NCBI GenBank assembly: GCA_964275345.1
Contig: CAXYBK010000003.1
Span: forward strand, 334,797-398,796
Length of the DNA stretch: 64,000 bases
Origin: an uncultured SAR86 cluster bacterium
Lineage (GTDB): Bacteria; Pseudomonadota; Gammaproteobacteria; Magnimaribacterales; D2472
Reading direction: 5' to 3'
Both the position numbers and the translations under genes were made by a program. Shown one piece after another: positions 22,906 through 53,924 of this stretch (its first letter is position 1; every line of letters begins with the position of its first letter). Under the pieces are notes generated by a model. That model saw only the letters and a list, made by a program, of their open reading frames with translations. It ran no database searches and had not been told where the DNA came from.

Positions 22906-22985
22906 TATATTTTTTCCAAGAAAAATGTTCTAGCTTTAAAATTTATATTCTGATTTGAAAGCAATGATATCAAACTTTTGATGGG

Positions 22986-32635: not shown

Positions 32636-32713
<78 letters not shown>

Positions 32714-34199: not shown

Positions 34200-34589
34200 T
34201 TAGATTTTGCCTTTATCTCTCATATCTTTTCTGATCTTTGTGGCGCTAATATCTGTAATTGCTTCTTCAAAACTCTCTTCTTCAAACACATAACCCACAC
34301 CGCGACCATAGGTAATATTTACAATATTAGGCACAAGCATGATTTCGTATTCTTTACCTCTTTCAAATCCATCCACTTGAAGACCATCCTCTATGTTCTT
34401 ACAAACAGTGTCCCAATCAAAGGGATTATCATCCTGACCATCTCCGCCTGAAGCGCCCTGGACATCTCTGACTTGAATAGCCACCTGCCCAGTTTTTGCA
34501 ACACATCTTTTAAATAGTGCTTGATGGCCATCATGCCAAGGCTGCCATCTCCCTAACATTTGAACAGTTGGCTTTTTCCAATCAAACAT
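34200..34589 (-). CDS. small HxGH-class nucleotidyltransferase (NMN adenylyltransferase / cytidylyltransferase-like)
   Basis: 129 aa. GRWQPWHDGH resembles archaeal NMNAT GR.QPFH.GH, and the C-terminus has the ISATKIR (ISxTxIR) motif. Its start overlaps the upstream kinase stop (ATGTTTGA). Confidence 0.65.
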   Translation of the reverse strand: MFDWKKPTVQMLGRWQPWHDGHQALFKRCVAKTGQVAIQVRDVQGASGGDGQDDNPFDWDTVCKNIEDGLQVDGFERGKEYEIMLVPNIVNITYGRGVGYVFEEESFEEAITDISATKIRKDMRDKGKI

Positions 34590-34992
34590 TTTTTAATATT
34601 TCCTTAGCCACATCATCGTGATTATGATCATTCCATTCAGTAATATGAAAACTTACATTCTCAGGATTTTGAAATAACTTATTAGTATCTTCGTATCTTC
34701 CTTCCTTAATAGTATCCATCCATACAACAATATCAGCATCAAAGTTTTCTCTGGTTTCTTGAGTAGGGCAAACAAAATCACATACTACATATCTACCATG
34801 TGATTTTTCAAAATCTGCAAAGCTGCGCATTCGAAGTGACTGTCTTCTTCTGCCTTCGTCAGAAAAGTCCCAATCATTTGCCATTTCTCGAACCTTATCT
34901 GCGTTATACCAAGCCGCACTCAATAAAGGCACTAACCTTTCTGTGAGATAGGTTTTACCACTTCCTGGCAAACCCATTACTAAAACTTTCAT
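34582..34992 (-). CDS. small P-loop kinase-like protein
   Basis: 136 aa with Walker A GLPGSGKTY at the extreme N-terminus and a size/layout like small nucleoside/nucleotide/APS-type kinases. Substrate unknown. Confidence 0.55.
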   Translation of the reverse strand: MKVLVMGLPGSGKTYLTERLVPLLSAAWYNADKVREMANDWDFSDEGRRRQSLRMRSFADFEKSHGRYVVCDFVCPTQETRENFDADIVVWMDTIKEGRYEDTNKLFQNPENVSFHITEWNDHNHDDVAKEILKNV

Positions 34993-39206: not shown

Positions 39207-39749
39207 TTAACGTCTCGAAGATAAAGCTATTTGTTCAAAATTTAAATTTTTATATGTGAAGACTGATTTTTCCATCAGAGGTCCAAATAACTTGTTCCAA
39301 TCGTAATGGATACCTAATTCATCTTTTATAGGTGGAGATATAGTAAAGGTAACATCATATAACTCGTCTATTTTCCCAGGCAATTTAATATTTTGAGCAT
39401 AATGTAAGCTATCCGACATATTTAAATGGGGTGTAAGCTGAACTTGCACTTCAGTTCCACTCTCAGCTTTAATTTTTACGAATACATTAAGATAGGCTAC
39501 AAAACCTCCAACCGGAGATCCATTTGGAGAATCTTCTGACCAATTAGCAAGCATTTCTATATGAATATCAGTATTAGATTCAGCACGAAAATATTCTTTA
39601 GGATGCACAATGTCCTTAGGAGCTGCTTCAAAAACAAGATCAATGCCTGGTTCCATTTTCTCCTCACCCACAATCATCTCAGCCGAATGAATTGAATAAG
39701 AAGTCATTAATATTATTAAAAACAAAGATTTGGTCATATTTAGCTCCAA
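39207..39749 (-). CDS. periplasmic iron-binding protein of the P19/FetP/Tp34 family
   Basis: Signal peptide. The 'DIHIEMLANW..SPNGSPVGGFVAYLNVFVKIK' segment resembles the HLEADIHA...G.W.PYL core of this family (from memory). No FTR1/FetM-type permease is adjacent. Confidence 0.55.
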   Translation of the reverse strand: MELNMTKSLFLIILMTSYSIHSAEMIVGEEKMEPGIDLVFEAAPKDIVHPKEYFRAESNTDIHIEMLANWSEDSPNGSPVGGFVAYLNVFVKIKAESGTEVQVQLTPHLNMSDSLHYAQNIKLPGKIDELYDVTFTISPPIKDELGIHYDWNKLFGPLMEKSVFTYKNLNFEQIALSSRR

Positions 39750-39873: not shown

Positions 39874-41070
39874 ATGAAAATTTTATGCGTATTATATGAT
39901 GATCCAAAAACAGGTATGCCTGAAAGATATGCCAGAGATGACCTGCCTAAATTAGACAAGTACCCAGATGGAATGAGTCTTCCGTCACCCAAAGCTATCG
40001 ATTTCACTCCAGGCGAATTGCTTGGTTGTGTATCTGGAGAGCTTGGACTTAGAAAATTTTTAGAAGATGCTGGACACACCTTAGTTGTGACCTCTGATAA
40101 AGATGGCGAGGGATGTGAGGCTGACAAAGAATTAGTTGATGCGGATATTGTTATATCTCAACCATTTTTTCCATATTATTTAACTAGAGATAAAATGGAA
40201 ACAGCGCCAAATTTAAAAATGGCAATTACTGCTGGGATTGGATCAGACCATGTTGACCTTCAAGCTGCCATGGACAATAACGTTGATGTTGTTGAGGTTA
40301 CTTATTGTAACTCTCGTTCGGTTGCTGAACACATTGTTATGATGATCTTATCTATGGTTCGTGATTATCATACTCAACATAGAATTGTAAAAGAGGGTGG
40401 ATGGAATATAGCTGATGCTGTCCAAAGATCATATGACGTAGAAGGTATGCATGTTGGAACTGTGGCTGCAGGAAGAATCGGTATTGACGTGTTAAGAAAA
40501 ATGAAACCCTTTGATGTGCATCTTCACTACTTTGATATTCATAAACTTTCTGATGAAATAGAAGCAGAATTAAATCTTACTTATCATGATTCTGTAGAGT
40601 CACTAGTTGCTGTTTGTGATGTAGTTAATATTAGCTGTCCATTGCATCCTAAAACCGAACATTTATTTGATGATGCAATGATCAGCAAGATGAAACGAGG
40701 TGCATATGTTATTAATACTGCTCGTGGAAAGATTTGTGATAAAGACGCAATTGCACGAGGCTTAGAATCTGGTCAATTAAGTGGATATGCTGGAGATGTT
40801 TGGTTCCCGCAACCAGCTCCAAATGATCATGTATGGAGAACTATGCCCAATCATGGCATGACTCCTCATACTTCAGGTACTTCGTTATCTGCTCAAACAA
40901 GATATGCTGCCGGGGTTAGAGAAATTCTAGAATGTTACTTTGCTGGTGAGCCAATTAGAGATCCATATTTAATTGTTCAAAATGGTGACTTGGCTGGAAT
41001 GGGAGCACATTCTTATACAAAAGGTACAGCCACTGATGGTTCCGAAGAGGCTGCCAAATATCAGAAATAA
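39874..41070 (+). CDS. fdh: NAD+-dependent formate dehydrogenase (metal-independent, D-2-hydroxyacid dehydrogenase family)
   Basis: The N-terminus MKILCVLYDDPKTGMPERYARDDLPKLDKYPDG..PSPKAIDFTPGELLG.VSGELGLRKFLE..GHTLVVTSDKDG is almost identical in pattern to Pseudomonas sp. 101 FDH as recalled. GAGRIG NAD fold. 398 aa. Confidence 0.93.
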   Translation: MKILCVLYDDPKTGMPERYARDDLPKLDKYPDGMSLPSPKAIDFTPGELLGCVSGELGLRKFLEDAGHTLVVTSDKDGEGCEADKELVDADIVISQPFFPYYLTRDKMETAPNLKMAITAGIGSDHVDLQAAMDNNVDVVEVTYCNSRSVAEHIVMMILSMVRDYHTQHRIVKEGGWNIADAVQRSYDVEGMHVGTVAAGRIGIDVLRKMKPFDVHLHYFDIHKLSDEIEAELNLTYHDSVESLVAVCDVVNISCPLHPKTEHLFDDAMISKMKRGAYVINTARGKICDKDAIARGLESGQLSGYAGDVWFPQPAPNDHVWRTMPNHGMTPHTSGTSLSAQTRYAAGVREILECYFAGEPIRDPYLIVQNGDLAGMGAHSYTKGTATDGSEEAAKYQK

Positions 41071-41090
41071 CATTTAATTAGCAATTATTA

Positions 41091-41119
41091 AAAAAGCCTT
41101 TTCAAAAGGCTTTTTTTTT
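41091..41119 (+). terminator. rho-independent terminator after fdh
   Basis: AAAAGCCTTTT-C-AAAAGGCTTTT hairpin followed by a T9 run. Confidence 0.8.
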
Positions 41120-41150
41120 CGAATAAAAAAGAATAATATAAAAATATAAC

Positions 41151-41233
41151 TGCAAAGGGGTGGTCATTCTGATCTGAGATCTACACAGAAACCCTTTGAA
41201 CCTGATCCATTTAATAATGGCGGAGGAATTGCA
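41151..41233 (+). promoter_or_regulatory. TPP (THI-box) riboswitch
   Basis: TGCAA-AGGGGUGG..CUGAGA..ACCCUUUGAACCUGAUCCAUUUAAUAAUGGCGGAGGAA-UUGCA contains every conserved THI-element block. The P1 3' strand and the GGAGG Shine-Dalgarno overlap the ATG at 41233, which implies translational control. Confidence 0.88.
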
Positions 41234-43341
41234 TGAATACCATTAGAACTAGTCTATTTATTTCTTTATTTATTTCTTTCTTTAGTTCTCAGATAGCATC
41301 TGAAACTATAGAGGAGATTATTATTAAAGGCGATTGGCGCCAAACCTCAGCAGATCAAGAAGATTCAAGTGTTCTTGTACTTGACGAGGAGATAATAAAA
41401 TCTCAACCACTTAAACACTTTGAACAACTTTCCTACTTGGTCCCAAATTTAAATTTTGCTGCTAGTGATTCAAGAGCGCGTTATTTCCAAATCAGAGGCA
41501 TCGGCGAAAGATCTGGATATCAAGGAACTCCTAATTCTTCAGTAGGATTTTTGATAGATGATATTGATTATTCAGGACAGGGGGGAATTGCTACAACTTT
41601 TGATCTCGATCAAATAGAGATTTACAGAGGTCCCCAGGGATCCAGGATTGGAGCAAATGCTTTAGCTGGGTTAATTTATATAAAAACTAAAGATCCAACT
41701 GATAAGTTTGAAGGCACAAGCGAGTTAACAATAGGCTCATATGGAACTAAGAGTACTGGCGTTGCTTTTGGCGGACCACTTAAAGTAAATAATGATCTTT
41801 CTTATAGGCTTGTTTTGAGAAAAGATAAATCTAATGGTTATAGAAAAAATTTATACCTCAATAAATCTGATACATCCAGAAAAGACGAGACAACCGCTCG
41901 TTTAAAAATTAAATGGAAATTTGATGATAAAACATCAGTTGATTTTTTGGTTATGCAGGTCGACATGGATGATCCTGCTGATATTTGGACTATAGATGGA
42001 AGTTTAAATACTCTATCTGATAGACCGGGGATGGACTCACAAAAGACTAATGCTTATGGATTAAAAGTATTTCGTGCATTAAATGGTTTTGAAATTCAAA
42101 GTCTTACAAGTTCAACAGATACTGATGTTGTGTTTAGTTATGATGCTGACTGGGGCAATCCAGATTCTCATTCACCCTATATTTATGACTATTTTTCTGA
42201 GACATTAAGAGACAGAAGCTCATTTAGTCAAGAATTTAGGCTAATTTCGGATAAATCAGACTTTTTATCAAATAATCTTATGGAATGGGTAGTTGGAATG
42301 AACTATTTAGAGCTTAAAGAGACAAATTTAAAATATGATGATGGTATTTATGGTGACCCTGCAGACCCATATGGTCCTTATGCTAGCGAATCTTCTTCTT
42401 CAAGTTCATATAAATCAGAAAACTTATCATTTTTTGGGAATATAGATTATCTTCTTTCAGAATCAACAAGGATATCTTTAGGTTTAAGAATGGAGGATTG
42501 GAAATCAAAATACTCAGATTCTTTTGGAGAATCATTTAATCCTTCGAATGATATGTCTGGAGGTAAAATATCTTTGATAAAAAATATAGAAAGTGGATCT
42601 AATATTTTTATTAGTATTGCTAAAGGATATAAGCAAGGTGGATTTAATCTTGGTTTAGGCTTAGGTGGAGATGTCTCAAATAAAGATCTTACCTATGATC
42701 CAGAATTTCTCACTAATTATGAAATAGGCATCAACTCTAAACTTAAGGATTCTAAATTAAATATTGAAACTGTAATATTTTATTCTGATCGAGAAGATCA
42801 ACAAGTTTTGATTTCTACTCAAGTGGATCCAACAGATCCAAATACTTTTTCATTTCTAACCCAAAATGCTGCAGAGGGAGTTAACTATGGCCTAGAAATA
42901 AATCTTGATATGCAGCTAACAAATGATTTTAATATATTTGCAAATCTAGGAATTCTCAAAACTGAAATTAAAAATTGGGAGTCTCGTCTAGATCTTGAAG
43001 GCCGATCGCAAGCTCATGCTCCAGAGAGAAGTTATGCTTTTGGTTTTAATTGGGCATTGAAATCAAATACTTATTTATCAGCAGATGTGACTGGTAAAAG
43101 TGAATTTTATTATTCAGATTCTCATAATAATAAATCAAAGTCATATAACCTAATGAATATAAATTATGGCTATGAAAAGAATAATTGGACTTATACATTA
43201 TGGGCGAGAAATATCTTTGATACTTACTACTCAGTCAGAGGTTTTTACTTTGGGAATGAAGCTCCAAATTTTGAAGAAACATTATACGAAAGACATGGAG
43301 ATCCAAGACATGTAGGAATATCAGTGAGATATGACTTTTAA
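41233..43341 (+). CDS. TonB-dependent outer-membrane receptor (predicted thiamine/thiamine-precursor uptake)
   Basis: 702 aa with signal peptide, plug domain (IEIYRGPQGSRIGANALAG), a beta-barrel and a terminal aromatic residue (..ISVRYDF). Sits directly behind the TPP riboswitch. Confidence 0.88.
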   Translation: MNTIRTSLFISLFISFFSSQIASETIEEIIIKGDWRQTSADQEDSSVLVLDEEIIKSQPLKHFEQLSYLVPNLNFAASDSRARYFQIRGIGERSGYQGTPNSSVGFLIDDIDYSGQGGIATTFDLDQIEIYRGPQGSRIGANALAGLIYIKTKDPTDKFEGTSELTIGSYGTKSTGVAFGGPLKVNNDLSYRLVLRKDKSNGYRKNLYLNKSDTSRKDETTARLKIKWKFDDKTSVDFLVMQVDMDDPADIWTIDGSLNTLSDRPGMDSQKTNAYGLKVFRALNGFEIQSLTSSTDTDVVFSYDADWGNPDSHSPYIYDYFSETLRDRSSFSQEFRLISDKSDFLSNNLMEWVVGMNYLELKETNLKYDDGIYGDPADPYGPYASESSSSSSYKSENLSFFGNIDYLLSESTRISLGLRMEDWKSKYSDSFGESFNPSNDMSGGKISLIKNIESGSNIFISIAKGYKQGGFNLGLGLGGDVSNKDLTYDPEFLTNYEIGINSKLKDSKLNIETVIFYSDREDQQVLISTQVDPTDPNTFSFLTQNAAEGVNYGLEINLDMQLTNDFNIFANLGILKTEIKNWESRLDLEGRSQAHAPERSYAFGFNWALKSNTYLSADVTGKSEFYYSDSHNNKSKSYNLMNINYGYEKNNWTYTLWARNIFDTYYSVRGFYFGNEAPNFEETLYERHGDPRHVGISVRYDF

Positions 43342-43918
43342 CCTTATTAATCCAATCTTAATGGAGATAACTGCAGTAGTATTTGCAATTATTTATCTAT
43401 TATTAGCTGTAAAACAAGATGTAAGATGCTGGTATGCGGCAATTTTTAGTTCATTCCTATATTTTTTTATAATGATGTCAGCAAATTTATATATGGAAGC
43501 ATATTTACAGATTTTCTATATCATTATGGCAATATATGGATGGTTCCAGTGGAATAAAATTAGTGAAAATAAATCTAAATTTATTGTTAGAACATGGAGT
43601 ATTAAACAACATCTAATTGTTATTTCTTCAGTAATTTCTTTAGCTTATATTTCAGGCAGTTTACTAAATATTTATACCGAAGCAGCTTTACCATTTATAG
43701 ATGCGCTTACAACGTGGGGAGCAATCATTGCTACTTACATGGTTGCAAAAAAATTACTAGAGAATTGGATATATTGGTTTGTAATAGATTCAATATCAGT
43801 ATTATTATTTATGTCACGTGGATTATATTTAACTTCAGTATTATTTTTTGTATACCTGATAATTATTTATTTTGGTTATAAGTCATGGACAAAAATAAAA
43901 CATGAAATGAATGATTAA
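43331..43918 (+). CDS. PnuC-family transporter (PnuT-like, predicted thiamine permease)
   Basis: 195 aa with about 7 TM helices and the PnuC hallmark W..Y..I.......Y...Q..Y..M..YGW..W region. Overlaps the receptor gene by 11 nt. Confidence 0.75.
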   Translation: MTFNLINPILMEITAVVFAIIYLLLAVKQDVRCWYAAIFSSFLYFFIMMSANLYMEAYLQIFYIIMAIYGWFQWNKISENKSKFIVRTWSIKQHLIVISSVISLAYISGSLLNIYTEAALPFIDALTTWGAIIATYMVAKKLLENWIYWFVIDSISVLLFMSRGLYLTSVLFFVYLIIIYFGYKSWTKIKHEMND

Positions 43919-44732
43919 TTTACAAAATAAAATTAATAAAATTTCTGGTAATTTTAAATTAGAAAATGAAATAAAGTCAGGACCAATATCAAAAATATTT
44001 TCTTGTGAGTTTAATAATATTAAATCAATTGTTAGATTTGATTTACCTCTTGCCTCTAAATTAAAGTTAAATCGTATGAAAGAAATTATGATTCTCAATG
44101 AGATAAGTTTCTTAAATCAATCTCCAAAAATATTGTTTGATAATATTAGTGAAGGTATTTTAATTTGGGAATATATTTCAGGAGCACAGTTAAATATTTC
44201 TAAAAACGACGAACCATTATTAACAGACTTAAGTAGATCATTAAAAAAAATACATCAAATAAAATTATCAAAAAGCTTAGTTACAAATTTTAATAAATCG
44301 ATTATTTCTTATAAAGCATTACTAATCGATTCACCAAATCAAAAATTAATTAATAAAGGTCTTAAGCTATTTGAAGAAATTTATGATGAAGATGCGCCTC
44401 GTGTTTTCAGTCACAATGACTTAAACAAAACTAACTTATTGCTTGGTAGTAAAATTTATTTCCTAGATTGGGAATATGCAAGTATGAATAGTCCTTATTT
44501 TGATATTGCTTCACTTGCAGCTACTTTTAACTTGGATAACGTAGGAATTAATATTTTATTAGAAGGTTACTCAGATAACTTTATTGCTATTAATCAAGAA
44601 AAACTTAAAAAATGGATCAGTTTTACTTATTATTTAGATTACCTGTGGAGAATGTCTATTGTGAAATTAGATGATTCATACAACAAAACCATGAAATTAG
44701 ATGAATTTGAAAGTTTTTTGCTAAATTTATAG
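43911..44732 (+). CDS. choline/aminoglycoside-kinase-fold phosphotransferase (ThiK-like, predicted thiamine kinase)
   Basis: 273 aa with the catalytic loop SHNDLNKTNLL and the metal-binding FLDWEYA motif of the APH/ChoK fold. Overlaps the pnuC-like gene by 8 nt. Confidence 0.7.
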   Translation: MINLQNKINKISGNFKLENEIKSGPISKIFSCEFNNIKSIVRFDLPLASKLKLNRMKEIMILNEISFLNQSPKILFDNISEGILIWEYISGAQLNISKNDEPLLTDLSRSLKKIHQIKLSKSLVTNFNKSIISYKALLIDSPNQKLINKGLKLFEEIYDEDAPRVFSHNDLNKTNLLLGSKIYFLDWEYASMNSPYFDIASLAATFNLDNVGINILLEGYSDNFIAINQEKLKKWISFTYYLDYLWRMSIVKLDDSYNKTMKLDEFESFLLNL

Positions 44733-44739
44733 GCTTTAA

Positions 44740-45204
44740 CTAGTTCAATAAGAAAAATACAATCATTACACCTATTACAAGCAATATAAGCAAATTATTG
44801 TCAAAAGCATCAATTAAGCTATCTTTTGTAGGTAACCTTAAAGACTTTATATAGTCCATATCTAAGTATTCTTCTAAAAATCCATCTTTTCTTGTCTTTT
44901 TAATACTATTTTCGGCATTCTCATTATTTACACCTGATATTGACTCATTTGACATTATATTATCCTCTAAATTATTGTTTTCTTCATAACCATTATTTGT
45001 ACTCATAGCTTCAATTGAGACTAATTCTGCTAAGATTTTATCTCTTTTTTCTCTGGCGACTATAATATCAGAAGTTTCTAGAGATTTCTTTATAAATTCT
45101 TTACCAATTATTTCTGAAACTTTTTTAGAAACTCTCTTTTGAATAAAATATATATCTCTATTTTTTCCCCGTAAAACCAGGTATTTATCATGATTTGTAC
45201 TCAT
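44740..45204 (-). CDS. hypothetical tail-anchored protein with integrase-arm-like (DUF6538-like) N-terminal module
   Basis: 154 aa. The N-terminus 'YLVLRGKNRDIYFIQKRVSKKVSEIIGKEFIKKSLETSD' resembles the G.YYFR.RVP..L....GK.EI..SL.T.D N-terminal module of some tyrosine recombinases. An Asn/Glu-rich linker and a single C-terminal TM follow. There is no recombinase catalytic domain. Confidence 0.45.
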   Translation of the reverse strand: MSTNHDKYLVLRGKNRDIYFIQKRVSKKVSEIIGKEFIKKSLETSDIIVAREKRDKILAELVSIEAMSTNNGYEENNNLEDNIMSNESISGVNNENAENSIKKTRKDGFLEEYLDMDYIKSLRLPTKDSLIDAFDNNLLILLVIGVMIVFFLLN

Positions 45205-45369: not shown

Positions 45370-45588
45370 ATGAATACAATTATTACATCACTTATAAATC
45401 ATATAAAAGCTTGGAATATGGTCTGGTTTGGGCTTATTTTCTGGGGTAGTGTCTTAAATGCATTTGCAGGAGAGCTTGGCTTGCTTACTAACAATCCTGA
45501 TTTATCTTATCTTTTCTTTTTATTAGGTCTTATTCTTGGTCTTACAGCTAAGTTTAGAGGAACATGGTTATGGATCCCAGCCAAGTAG
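45370..45588 (+). CDS. small hydrophobic protein (2 predicted TM)
   Basis: 72-aa ORF overlapping the desaturase-family gene by 25 nt. No family recognised. Confidence 0.35.
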   Translation: MNTIITSLINHIKAWNMVWFGLIFWGSVLNAFAGELGLLTNNPDLSYLFFLLGLILGLTAKFRGTWLWIPAK

Positions 45589-46454
45589 ACATCTATTCCT
45601 TTGCAAATGAAAAAGAAATTGCTAGATCTTTTTCAAAAAGATTCCAATGGGAAATGGTTTTAATTGGTTTAGGTCAAGCCACTGTCTTTTTATCTTTATG
45701 GCCACTTGTTATCTTAAATATTATTCCTTTATGGATAGCTGCTCCTATTTCTTGTCTTTGCGCCTTGTTTGCCTACTTACCTTCTCACGAAGCTCAACAT
45801 GGTAACTACTCAAGAGGTAACGCAGATAAAAGATGGATTGACTCTCTTGTAAGTCATATTACTTTAATTCCATTAATGTTCCCTCATCACATTATGAGAG
45901 CTACTCACATGAAACATCATGCATATACTAACGATCCTCATAAAGATGTTGATTATGATACTGCCTCATCAAATTCGCTTTTAGAAGTTTTTTTGCGTTC
46001 GAATGAATCTACTGCTAAATACGATAAATATCTCGAAGTATTTAAGGATGATAAAAACTTTGTAAAATCTTTTGAAAAAGGAGGATTAGTTGGTTTAGCT
46101 TACAGAGCAACTTTGATGACCTTAGTTATATTTTTTCCTCTTGAGGCTCTTTTCCTATGGTGGCTCCCAAGCAAAGTTGGAGTAATGTATTTGTCTACTT
46201 TCTTCTCTTGGTATCCTCATTATCAAATGGAAACAGGTCGCTATAAAGATACTAGATTTTGGCATCATTTATTACCACGGTATATAAATCACTCAATGCA
46301 ATTACATTTTGTACATCATCTTCATCCTGGTATAGGTCATTTTGATGAGCCTAAAGCAATTGAAGCCTTAAAGCCTTTTTTAATAGAAAAGGGAGTTCCA
46401 GGAGCTGATCAGATCCCTGATCGAGTATCATATAATCCATTAATTAAATTTTAA
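45564..46454 (+). CDS. membrane fatty-acid-desaturase-family di-iron enzyme
   Basis: 296 aa with three His boxes in the canonical order: HEAQHG, HMKHH, HFVHHLH. TM pairs flank box 1. Confidence 0.75.
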   Translation: MVMDPSQVDIYSFANEKEIARSFSKRFQWEMVLIGLGQATVFLSLWPLVILNIIPLWIAAPISCLCALFAYLPSHEAQHGNYSRGNADKRWIDSLVSHITLIPLMFPHHIMRATHMKHHAYTNDPHKDVDYDTASSNSLLEVFLRSNESTAKYDKYLEVFKDDKNFVKSFEKGGLVGLAYRATLMTLVIFFPLEALFLWWLPSKVGVMYLSTFFSWYPHYQMETGRYKDTRFWHHLLPRYINHSMQLHFVHHLHPGIGHFDEPKAIEALKPFLIEKGVPGADQIPDRVSYNPLIKF

Positions 46455-47189: not shown

Positions 47190-47942
47190 TTATGCTGATG
47201 CAGATTCTTTAACTGCAACATTCCAGATAACTAAACCAAATAGAATCTTGTTAACAAAGTCAGCAAGATTATAAACAATGTTTAAGTTAGCAGCATATAC
47301 GCCTTCGCCACCCATTAGGTAACCAGCAGCATATCCAGCAGGATATATAGCCCAACCTACGATAATGATCCACATCATAGTGTTGTAAGCAGACATAACA
47401 GCAGGACTTGCTTGATTAACAGCATTTTTTCCTTCTCCAGCCCATAGCTCATAAATCATGTACAACCATGCAGCTACACCAACGATAAACGCAGGTAATA
47501 CAGCCATGATTCCAGCTTCACCCATGTATCCAAATAAAAGCATTACTAGCGAACCGCCAAGTAATTTTTTGAATAATGAAGCAGCAACATTTGTACATGC
47601 AGCAAGGATTAAGTAGAACTCAACCATTAGTAATGGAACAGTTAGCAACCAATCAATATATCTAAATACTGTTGGCGTTTCACCAGTTTCAATCCATACA
47701 CCTCTCATGTATAAGTAGTGCCAAAAAGCAATACCAGTAACAAGACCAGATACAGTTAACGATGTTTTCCACTTTGAGCTTACGTTATCTCTTTCAACAA
47801 AGAAGAAGACAGTTGCTGCTAATAAAGCCGCAGTAACTAGCCAAAATGAAACACCAGTAAGGTCACTAGCTTGAAGATCACCGCCGCTAGCAGCGAATGA
47901 TGGAAGTGCAATAGCACTAGTCAATAATAATAACAATTTCAT
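47190..47942 (-). CDS. proteorhodopsin (green-absorbing type, Leu at the position-105 tuning site)
   Basis: 250 aa with signal peptide and 7 TM helices. Helix C RYIDWLLTVPLLMVEFYL carries the D97 acceptor, L105 and the E108 donor. The retinal Lys is in NLADFVNKILFGL. Near-collinear with the SAR86 EBAC31A08 sequence as I recall it. Confidence 0.97.
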   Translation of the reverse strand: MKLLLLLTSAIALPSFAASGGDLQASDLTGVSFWLVTAALLAATVFFFVERDNVSSKWKTSLTVSGLVTGIAFWHYLYMRGVWIETGETPTVFRYIDWLLTVPLLMVEFYLILAACTNVAASLFKKLLGGSLVMLLFGYMGEAGIMAVLPAFIVGVAAWLYMIYELWAGEGKNAVNQASPAVMSAYNTMMWIIIVGWAIYPAGYAAGYLMGGEGVYAANLNIVYNLADFVNKILFGLVIWNVAVKESASA

Positions 47943-53666: not shown

Positions 53667-53924
53667 ATTTGTACTATTTTAATATATGTAAAGTAAACTT
53701 GTCATTATTTTATTTGATGTTTACAGTGTTAACATTTAACACCTTTTGACTATAGATTGTCAATAAAGGCTTTTTTCAAGATATCTTTTACTAAAAAGGT
53801 AAGAATTAATACTAATTATTAAAAGTTATTTACTGATCTTAGAGTAGAATATCATCAATAAGTTCAATCAATTAAATTATGATTCAAACAGAACAAGTTT
53901 CACTAACATACAAGGTAAAGTAAG

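Follow-up and report, generated by a model that had tools for sequence, protein, structure and literature searches.

Introduction

Among the closest described relatives of the system reported here is that of Bacteroides, in which mutants of the outer-membrane receptor OMthi (BT2390) and of PnuT, encoded by pnuT-tnr3 (BT2396-97), are impaired in thiamine (vitamin B1) uptake (PMC5613172). An omr receptor gene with a nearby thiamine pyrophosphate (TPP) riboswitch has been found in ocean metagenomes (PMC2211319), and Bittner et al. 2024 (PMC10881298) report omr1 with such a riboswitch in SAR86 and Flavobacteriales. For SAR86 itself, Dupont et al. (PMC3358033) described one genome with thiamine synthesis and others without, and found no transporter; the lineage is said to need a precursor in one paper (PMC12998435). 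We analysed a stretch of 64,000 nucleotides (hereafter the window) from an uncultured SAR86 cluster bacterium (GenBank assembly GCA_964275345.1, contig CAXYBK010000003.1, positions 334,797 to 398,796), in which positions 41151-44732 hold a TPP riboswitch followed by genes for a TonB-dependent receptor, a PnuC-family permease and a choline-kinase-fold kinase. We read this operon, with a probability of about 0.8, as the predicted route of the cell to vitamin B1, by import, trapping and TPP feedback, in place of synthesis.

The design of the operon is already known. The OMthi-PnuT-Tnr3 system of Bacteroides and that of SAR86 share a TPP riboswitch, a TonB receptor, PnuT and a phosphorylating enzyme, and these components frequently lie in a single operon. 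Tnr3, however, is a pyrophosphokinase that converts thiamine to TPP, whereas in SAR86 a Tnr3/ThiN-type partner was not found (PF04263 in 0/61 relatives) and a different kinase, of the choline-kinase fold, stands in its place and would work together with ThiL. Furthermore, B. thetaiotaomicron retains synthesis beside its uptake system, whereas no SAR86 genome was found with both. Compared with the omr1 report (PMC10881298), the receptor class, the riboswitch and the lineage are the same, and the available text of that report makes no mention of pnuT, the kinase or an either/or pattern.

The operon and its riboswitch

The assembly studied (G000) comprises 0.98 Mb in 3 contigs with 34-35% GC, and the order to which the genome belongs was read as SAR86. 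Gene content was surveyed in 61 relatives and in a wider set of 154 genomes of the SAR86 order, each at least 80% complete. The operon consists of the following elements (aa, amino acids; nt, nucleotides; APH, aminoglycoside phosphotransferase).

41151..41233, + strand: TPP (THI-box) riboswitch aptamer, P1 to P1 (RF00059; pairing conserved, with covariation, across 23 copies)
41222..41226, + strand: GGAGG resembling a Shine-Dalgarno sequence, within the aptamer and 6 nt upstream of the ATG at 41233; GAGG forms the 3' strand of P4
41233..43341, + strand: TonB-dependent outer-membrane receptor, omr1/OMthi-type, 702 aa (PF07715, plug, and PF00593, barrel, over the cut-off)
43331..43918, + strand: PnuC-family permease, PnuT-type, 195 aa (PF04973, 157 bits; TIGR01528 over the cut-off)
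43911..44732, + strand: choline-kinase/APH-fold kinase, 273 aa, predicted thiamine kinase (PF01633, 54.7 bits)

The three co-oriented open reading frames after the riboswitch (702, 195 and 273 aa) and their Pfam matches bore out the preliminary description of a TonB-dependent receptor under the riboswitch, a PnuC-family gene overlapping it by 11 nt and a choline kinase/APH-family gene overlapping the latter by 8 nt. An opposite-strand gene ends 7 nt past the 3' end of the kinase gene.

The covariance model RF00059 matched positions 41146-41245 (+) with 67 bits against a gathering threshold of 54.3 (E 5e-11), which confirmed the complete THI-box riboswitch claimed earlier at 41151-41233; in the Rfam scan this was the sole TPP riboswitch of the assembly. 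In the Rfam alignment, P1 is formed by 41151-41155 paired with 41229-41233, and position 41233 is the A of the start codon. The earlier claim that the P1 3' strand and the GGAGG overlap the ATG was therefore correct for P1, which reaches the A only, and not for the GGAGG, which lies upstream. Over 23 SAR86 copies the GGAGG was invariant and the Rfam structure was 97.5% paired, as compared with 30-55% in slid controls. Sixteen compensatory cells were counted in these copies, against at most 4 in the slid controls, 5 pairs had changes on both sides, and a C-G pair of P1 was replaced by U-A in 3/23 copies. Minimum free energy folding of the leader alone was uninformative (z -0.75 and 0.17), and the riboswitch is thus supported by the Rfam match and the covariation, not by folding energy.

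The start codon followed the motif after 0-8 nt in 36/36 SAR86 copies, with the same spacing as here in 30/36, and no space is left for a separate expression platform between the aptamer and the ATG. Judged by its sequence, the riboswitch is of the direct translation attenuation class, with the ribosome-binding site inside the aptamer and the start codon immediately after it. This class is known for TPP riboswitches (Barrick and Breaker 2007, PMC2258182), and in those, as in this one, the aptamer's purine-rich 3' portion also acts as the ribosome-binding site. TPP-dependent switching, with translational coupling of the downstream genes, would be expected from this layout.

Receptor and permease

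The receptor has a signal-like N-terminus and a C-terminal Phe, and it fell below the cut-off of BtuB and of every siderophore-receptor model. A sequence search of the PDB returned generic siderophore receptors only, and a siderophore-receptor identity was set aside. The class of the protein is established and its ligand would be thiamine; exbB and exbD are present in the genome.

In the permease, W146-x-x-W149-x3-D153, Y63/W74 and Y175/W186 have the spacing of W159/W162/D166, Y77/W88 and Y188/W199 of PnuT from Shewanella woodyi, for which the binding and gate residues have been described (PMC5749112), so that by spacing all seven named residues are present here. The motif-final Asp was found in 35/35 permease copies, whereas the solved PnuC has Asn. 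By analogy with Shewanella PnuT, from which the mechanism is borrowed, thiamine would pass through the permease by facilitated diffusion. TMP (thiamine monophosphate) and TPP are not bound by PnuT (PMC5749112), and the logic of a kinase trap is alike in the two systems. On sequence grounds the operon, a riboswitch-controlled TonB receptor with a linked PnuC-family permease bearing Pnu motifs, is of the OMthi/omr1-PnuT type.

Importer versus thiamine synthesis genes

Searches of G000 detected no thiC, thiE, thiG, ThiN (PF04263), YjbQ or TenA, and for the ThiD family they returned only a match below the cut-off. The sites at which relatives carry synthesis genes are listed below, with the names of the flanking genes read from sequence.

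22906..22985, no strand: thiE site of relatives, here an 80-bp gap flanked by hemG-like and hemL-like genes
53667..53924, no strand: thiC site of relatives, here a 258-bp gap flanked by tolC-like and parE-like genes
C3:188404-188430, outside the window: rpoH-trmB gap, the thiSG site of relatives, empty

Since all three sites are assembled, with intact flanks, and are empty, assembly gaps are an unlikely cause of the missing thiC, thiE and thiSG. The TPP enzymes sucA and dxs are encoded in the genome. The vitamin B1 auxotrophy proposed in the preliminary description is consistent with this outcome, in which none of thiC, thiE and thiG was found and thiL was kept in a frameshifted form.

Among the 61 relatives, 24 had thiE over the cut-off, and the riboswitch, pnuT and the kinase were found in none of those 24. 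The riboswitch was present in 36/37 relatives without thiE; conversely, thiE occurred in 0/37 importer-bearing genomes. In the 154 genomes of the order, pnuT was found in 88 and the receptor in 89 (single-copy, and thiG in none of the 89), with a union of 90, and thiG was found in 55. Not one genome had both importer and thiG, against an overlap of about 32/154 expected by chance, and 9 had neither; draft genomes may hide genes from such presence counts. Three genera were mixed for importer versus thiG. On a tree of 50 genomes built from four linked genes, with ten genomes added to gain contrasts and those with neither trait left out, the state changed at least 10 times, and 10/10 independent pairs were opposite in direction (sign test, p=0.002).

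The neighbours of the operon were variable across genomes, and the synthesis genes stood at conserved sites. The receptor tree was in conflict with the taxonomy: family f4 nested in f1 (approximately unbiased test, p=0.047, borderline), and genus g1 as a single clade was rejected (p=5e-5), the groups having been picked after viewing a tree. Together these observations suggest, as a possible direction of change, repeated importer gain accompanied by synthesis loss.

The thiE-bearing genomes were not uniform. The gene thiC was also present in 16/24 of them, and those without it point to a third type, dependent on hydroxymethylpyrimidine (HMP). Genus g7, genome G015 and part of genus g13 have thiE and thiG without thiC and without the operon, resembling the HMP dependence of SAR11, and no riboswitch-marked transporter was identified in them. 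The 24 thiE-bearing genomes yielded no TPP riboswitch, even upstream of thiC (stricter filters), and B1 synthesis in these genomes may be unregulated or otherwise regulated. A second PF02581 gene occurs in the thiE genomes, and both copies are absent together in importer-bearing genomes; this second gene may belong to B1 synthesis and be TenI-like.

In other Gammaproteobacteria the same gene order recurs, with a TPP riboswitch in 15/17 loci tested. Many of the distant loci have a small gene between the receptor gene and pnuT, which encoded a YkoF/thiamine-binding protein in 3/4 tested, and SAR86 is without this intervening gene. Two loci (L067:2298-3830 and L088:3904-5399) have no receptor gene; in them pnuT-kinase is immediately preceded by a riboswitch-like motif.

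The kinase

Residues H168, D170, N175 and D186 of the third gene product are invariant in 32 homologues. Its structure model (mean confidence, pLDDT, 94.8) best matched the pneumococcal choline kinase LicA (TM 0.77, 20% identity). The protein shares with E. coli ThiK (YcfN) the choline-kinase/APH fold, the HxDxxxxN and DWEYA motifs and the same proposed reaction, and the two aligned with 22% identity over 130 residues. However, it scored 58 bits with the ThiK model TIGR02721, for which the cut-off is 299, and the best E value among the 32 homologues was 2e-31, a result that GntI surpasses. In the reverse direction, ThiK scored 51 bits on the profile of the operon kinases, as compared with a member median of 235. 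In addition, thiK lies between lpoB and nagZ, unlike the pnuT-linked kinase here. By these comparisons the kinase shares the ThiK fold and is not an established ThiK orthologue; the fold likeness to E. coli ThiK asserted in the preliminary description stood.

Other names were considered for the protein. The guanitoxin kinase GntI, its top NCBIfam match (65 vs 357 bits), was rejected as a fold-level likeness with no such gene context, and 'choline kinase' from the ESM Atlas proved to be automatic names only. LicA-type neighbours, namely choline transport and cytidylyltransferase genes, were not found at the locus, where the neighbours are pnuT and a DUF6538-like gene.

The assignment therefore comes from gene context and not from orthology. 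A match to the kinase profile adjoins pnuT in 68/80 Gammaproteobacteria loci (the profile was partly built from those loci), and in the genomes searched, strong homologues were confined to those without thiE. Because ThiL was found in 60/61 relatives (57/61 over the cut-off, close kin included) and ThiN in 0/61, a kinase step from thiamine to TMP is needed, and this kinase probably makes TMP from thiamine.

Alternative explanations

Several points weigh against the operon as a complete route to vitamin B1. The absences are drawn from an assembly that is 81% complete, and the specificity of omr1 was still called unclear in a 2025 paper (PMC12442306). The thiL gene is kept in G000 (C3:15540-16407, outside the window) and is frameshifted. 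The kinase is equally close to ThiK, to GntI and to the choline kinase LicA. Furthermore, six genomes of family f2 (G040, G043, G046, G049, G052 and G055; 90-96% complete) keep the riboswitch, the receptor and pnuT, with no adjacent kinase (loci L152-L154, L156, L158 and L159) and no ThiN. Profile hits in the five of these genomes searched reached at most 60 bits, in unrelated neighbourhoods, and were not taken to be the missing kinase. The kinase trap is thus not universal, and the f2 genomes are the chief evidence against the kinase being essential.

The alternative that survives best keeps thiamine import by the receptor and PnuT, and has the third gene phosphorylate choline, ethanolamine or another small alcohol, while an unrecognised enzyme activates thiamine. 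Choline kinases are the top matches in both the structural and the PDB sequence searches, the ThiK model failed, and the f2 relatives run the importer without the kinase, all of which would fit. This explanation is nevertheless unlikely, as the profile places the kinase beside pnuT in so many loci (with the reservation on its construction given above), the gene overlaps pnuT in an operon headed by a TPP riboswitch, and no thiE genome searched contained a strong homologue.

Much less probable is a ThiL-independent formation of TPP, by the kinase or by some other enzyme, with a genuine frameshift in thiL. The Bacteroides system does use a pyrophosphokinase, Tnr3, and thiL in G000 is split by a one-base insertion. 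However, comparison with an 88% identical intact copy places the insertion in an A-run. Two further genes outside the window, dxs (C3:13490-15092) and a metX-like gene (C3:184428-185464), are likewise split by frameshifts, and we therefore read the thiL frameshift as an indel error; it is probably a product of the assembly. Given such probable errors, broken genes in G000 deserve caution. Over-cut-off thiL in the relatives, close kin included, argues in the same direction. Enzymes of the APH/choline-kinase type transfer one phosphate, which also counts against formation of TPP without ThiL.

A cargo other than thiamine, either a precursor or a breakdown product such as HMP, aminomethylpyrimidine (AmMP) or thiazole, is doubtful to a similar degree. 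The TPP riboswitch also governs precursor transporters, for example thiV in SAR11 (PMC10881298), and the unclear specificity of omr1 would leave room for such a cargo. On the other hand, thiE, thiD, tenA and yjbQ are missing, the thiE site is empty, thiE is lacking from all 37 importer genomes, and the SAR86 genomes that resemble HMP auxotrophs (thiE and thiG, no thiC) do not carry the operon. With thiE gone and no YjbQ, ThiD or TenA, there is no known way to join the thiamine halves, which strongly favours intact thiamine over HMP as the probable cargo. The preliminary description had held that the sequence could not decide between thiamine, HMP and degradation products, and the loss of thiE narrows this choice.

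The least credible explanation, an operon for uptake of nicotinamide riboside or riboflavin (PnuC or PnuX) with a misleading leader, can appeal to the permease passing the PnuC model TIGR01528 and having PnuC as its only solved relative, but the TPP aptamer is conserved with covariation, the permease motif ends in Asp as in PnuT and not in the Asn of the solved PnuC, a tblastn search with E. coli NadR (single query; 81% complete assembly) found no match for a NadR-type kinase, and the presence of the operon tracks the loss of thiamine synthesis.

Proposed mechanism

The route from outer membrane to inner membrane to phosphorylation trap that the preliminary description proposed is supported, with a riboswitch score above the threshold and no de novo pathway found. 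In the import route that we favour, the TonB receptor, powered by the Ton system, would capture intact thiamine from seawater, and PnuT would let it diffuse through the inner membrane in the manner of Shewanella PnuT. The choline-kinase-fold enzyme is predicted to phosphorylate thiamine to TMP, which would be trapped because PnuT does not carry TMP, and ThiL, encoded elsewhere, would convert TMP to TPP. With TPP bound, the aptamer would then close its P4 and P1 helices, which take in the ribosome-binding site and the first base of the AUG, so that translation stops directly, and the gene overlaps may pass this block on to the pnuT and kinase genes. The operon would in this manner replace B1 synthesis in SAR86.

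Surroundings of the operon

The following features were recorded around the operon in the window.

711-888, - strand: 6S RNA
32639-32713, - strand: tRNA
34200-34992, - strand: overlapping genes for an APS (adenylylsulfate)-kinase-like P-loop protein of 136 aa and for a second protein of 129 aa
37879-39201, + strand: transporter of the major facilitator superfamily (MFS) type, MFS-like
39207-39749, - strand: Fe2+ transport protein, P19/Tpd-like (PF10634), alone between the MFS and formate dehydrogenase genes
39874-41070, + strand: NAD-dependent formate dehydrogenase (NF005750, 664 bits)
41090..41119, + strand: hairpin and 9-T run (fold -11.3 kcal/mol, z -3.35, 0/200 shuffles as stable)
44740-45204, - strand: 154-aa gene convergent with the kinase gene (N-terminal DUF6538-like segment, 26 bits, just under the cut-off; hydrophobic C-terminus)
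45564-46454, + strand: fatty-acid-desaturase-family gene
47190-47942, + strand: proteorhodopsin-like gene, read from sequence

The hairpin at 41090-41119, which a pattern scan did not list, is likely an intrinsic terminator that ends transcription of the formate dehydrogenase gene upstream, and the operon would then have its own transcript. A promoter scan gave 21 sites, as compared with 27 in shuffles, and none upstream of the riboswitch, and we propose no promoter for the operon. The formate dehydrogenase gene, the MFS-like gene or both adjoin the thiamine operon in many relatives, on either side, and the 154-aa DUF6538-like gene keeps its place beside the kinase in genera g1 and g5. The 129-aa protein of the pair at 34200-34992 has an HxGH-like motif and no Pfam match, and the pair resembles a split kinase/nucleotidyltransferase unit.

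Implications for SAR86

A literature search found neither the strict either/or pattern nor tests of this kinase family; Paerl et al. 2018 was not covered by it, and a prior description is possible. Going beyond the locus itself, we lean slightly towards a broader reading of the genome comparisons. The third gene would represent a separate thiamine-kinase family, widespread in marine Gammaproteobacteria and missed by the ThiK models, and the operon would be a mobile replacement for B1 synthesis. SAR86 would have switched about 10 times between making the vitamin, wholly or in part, and scavenging it, never doing both, and would comprise three B1 types and not a uniform auxotrophy. This contrasts with the usual treatment of the clade as auxotrophic. 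If it is true, the kinase-less sub-lineage would need another route of thiamine trapping. The kinase offers a candidate family of thiamine kinases, distinct from ThiK, that can be put to the test, and the operon would supply the B1 transporter that was not identified in the first SAR86 genome paper (PMC3358033). As a marker it would divide the clade into lineages that make B1, those that make part of it and depend on HMP, and those that scavenge it, and for culturing the lineages that carry it, the predicted form of the vitamin is intact B1, not HMP.

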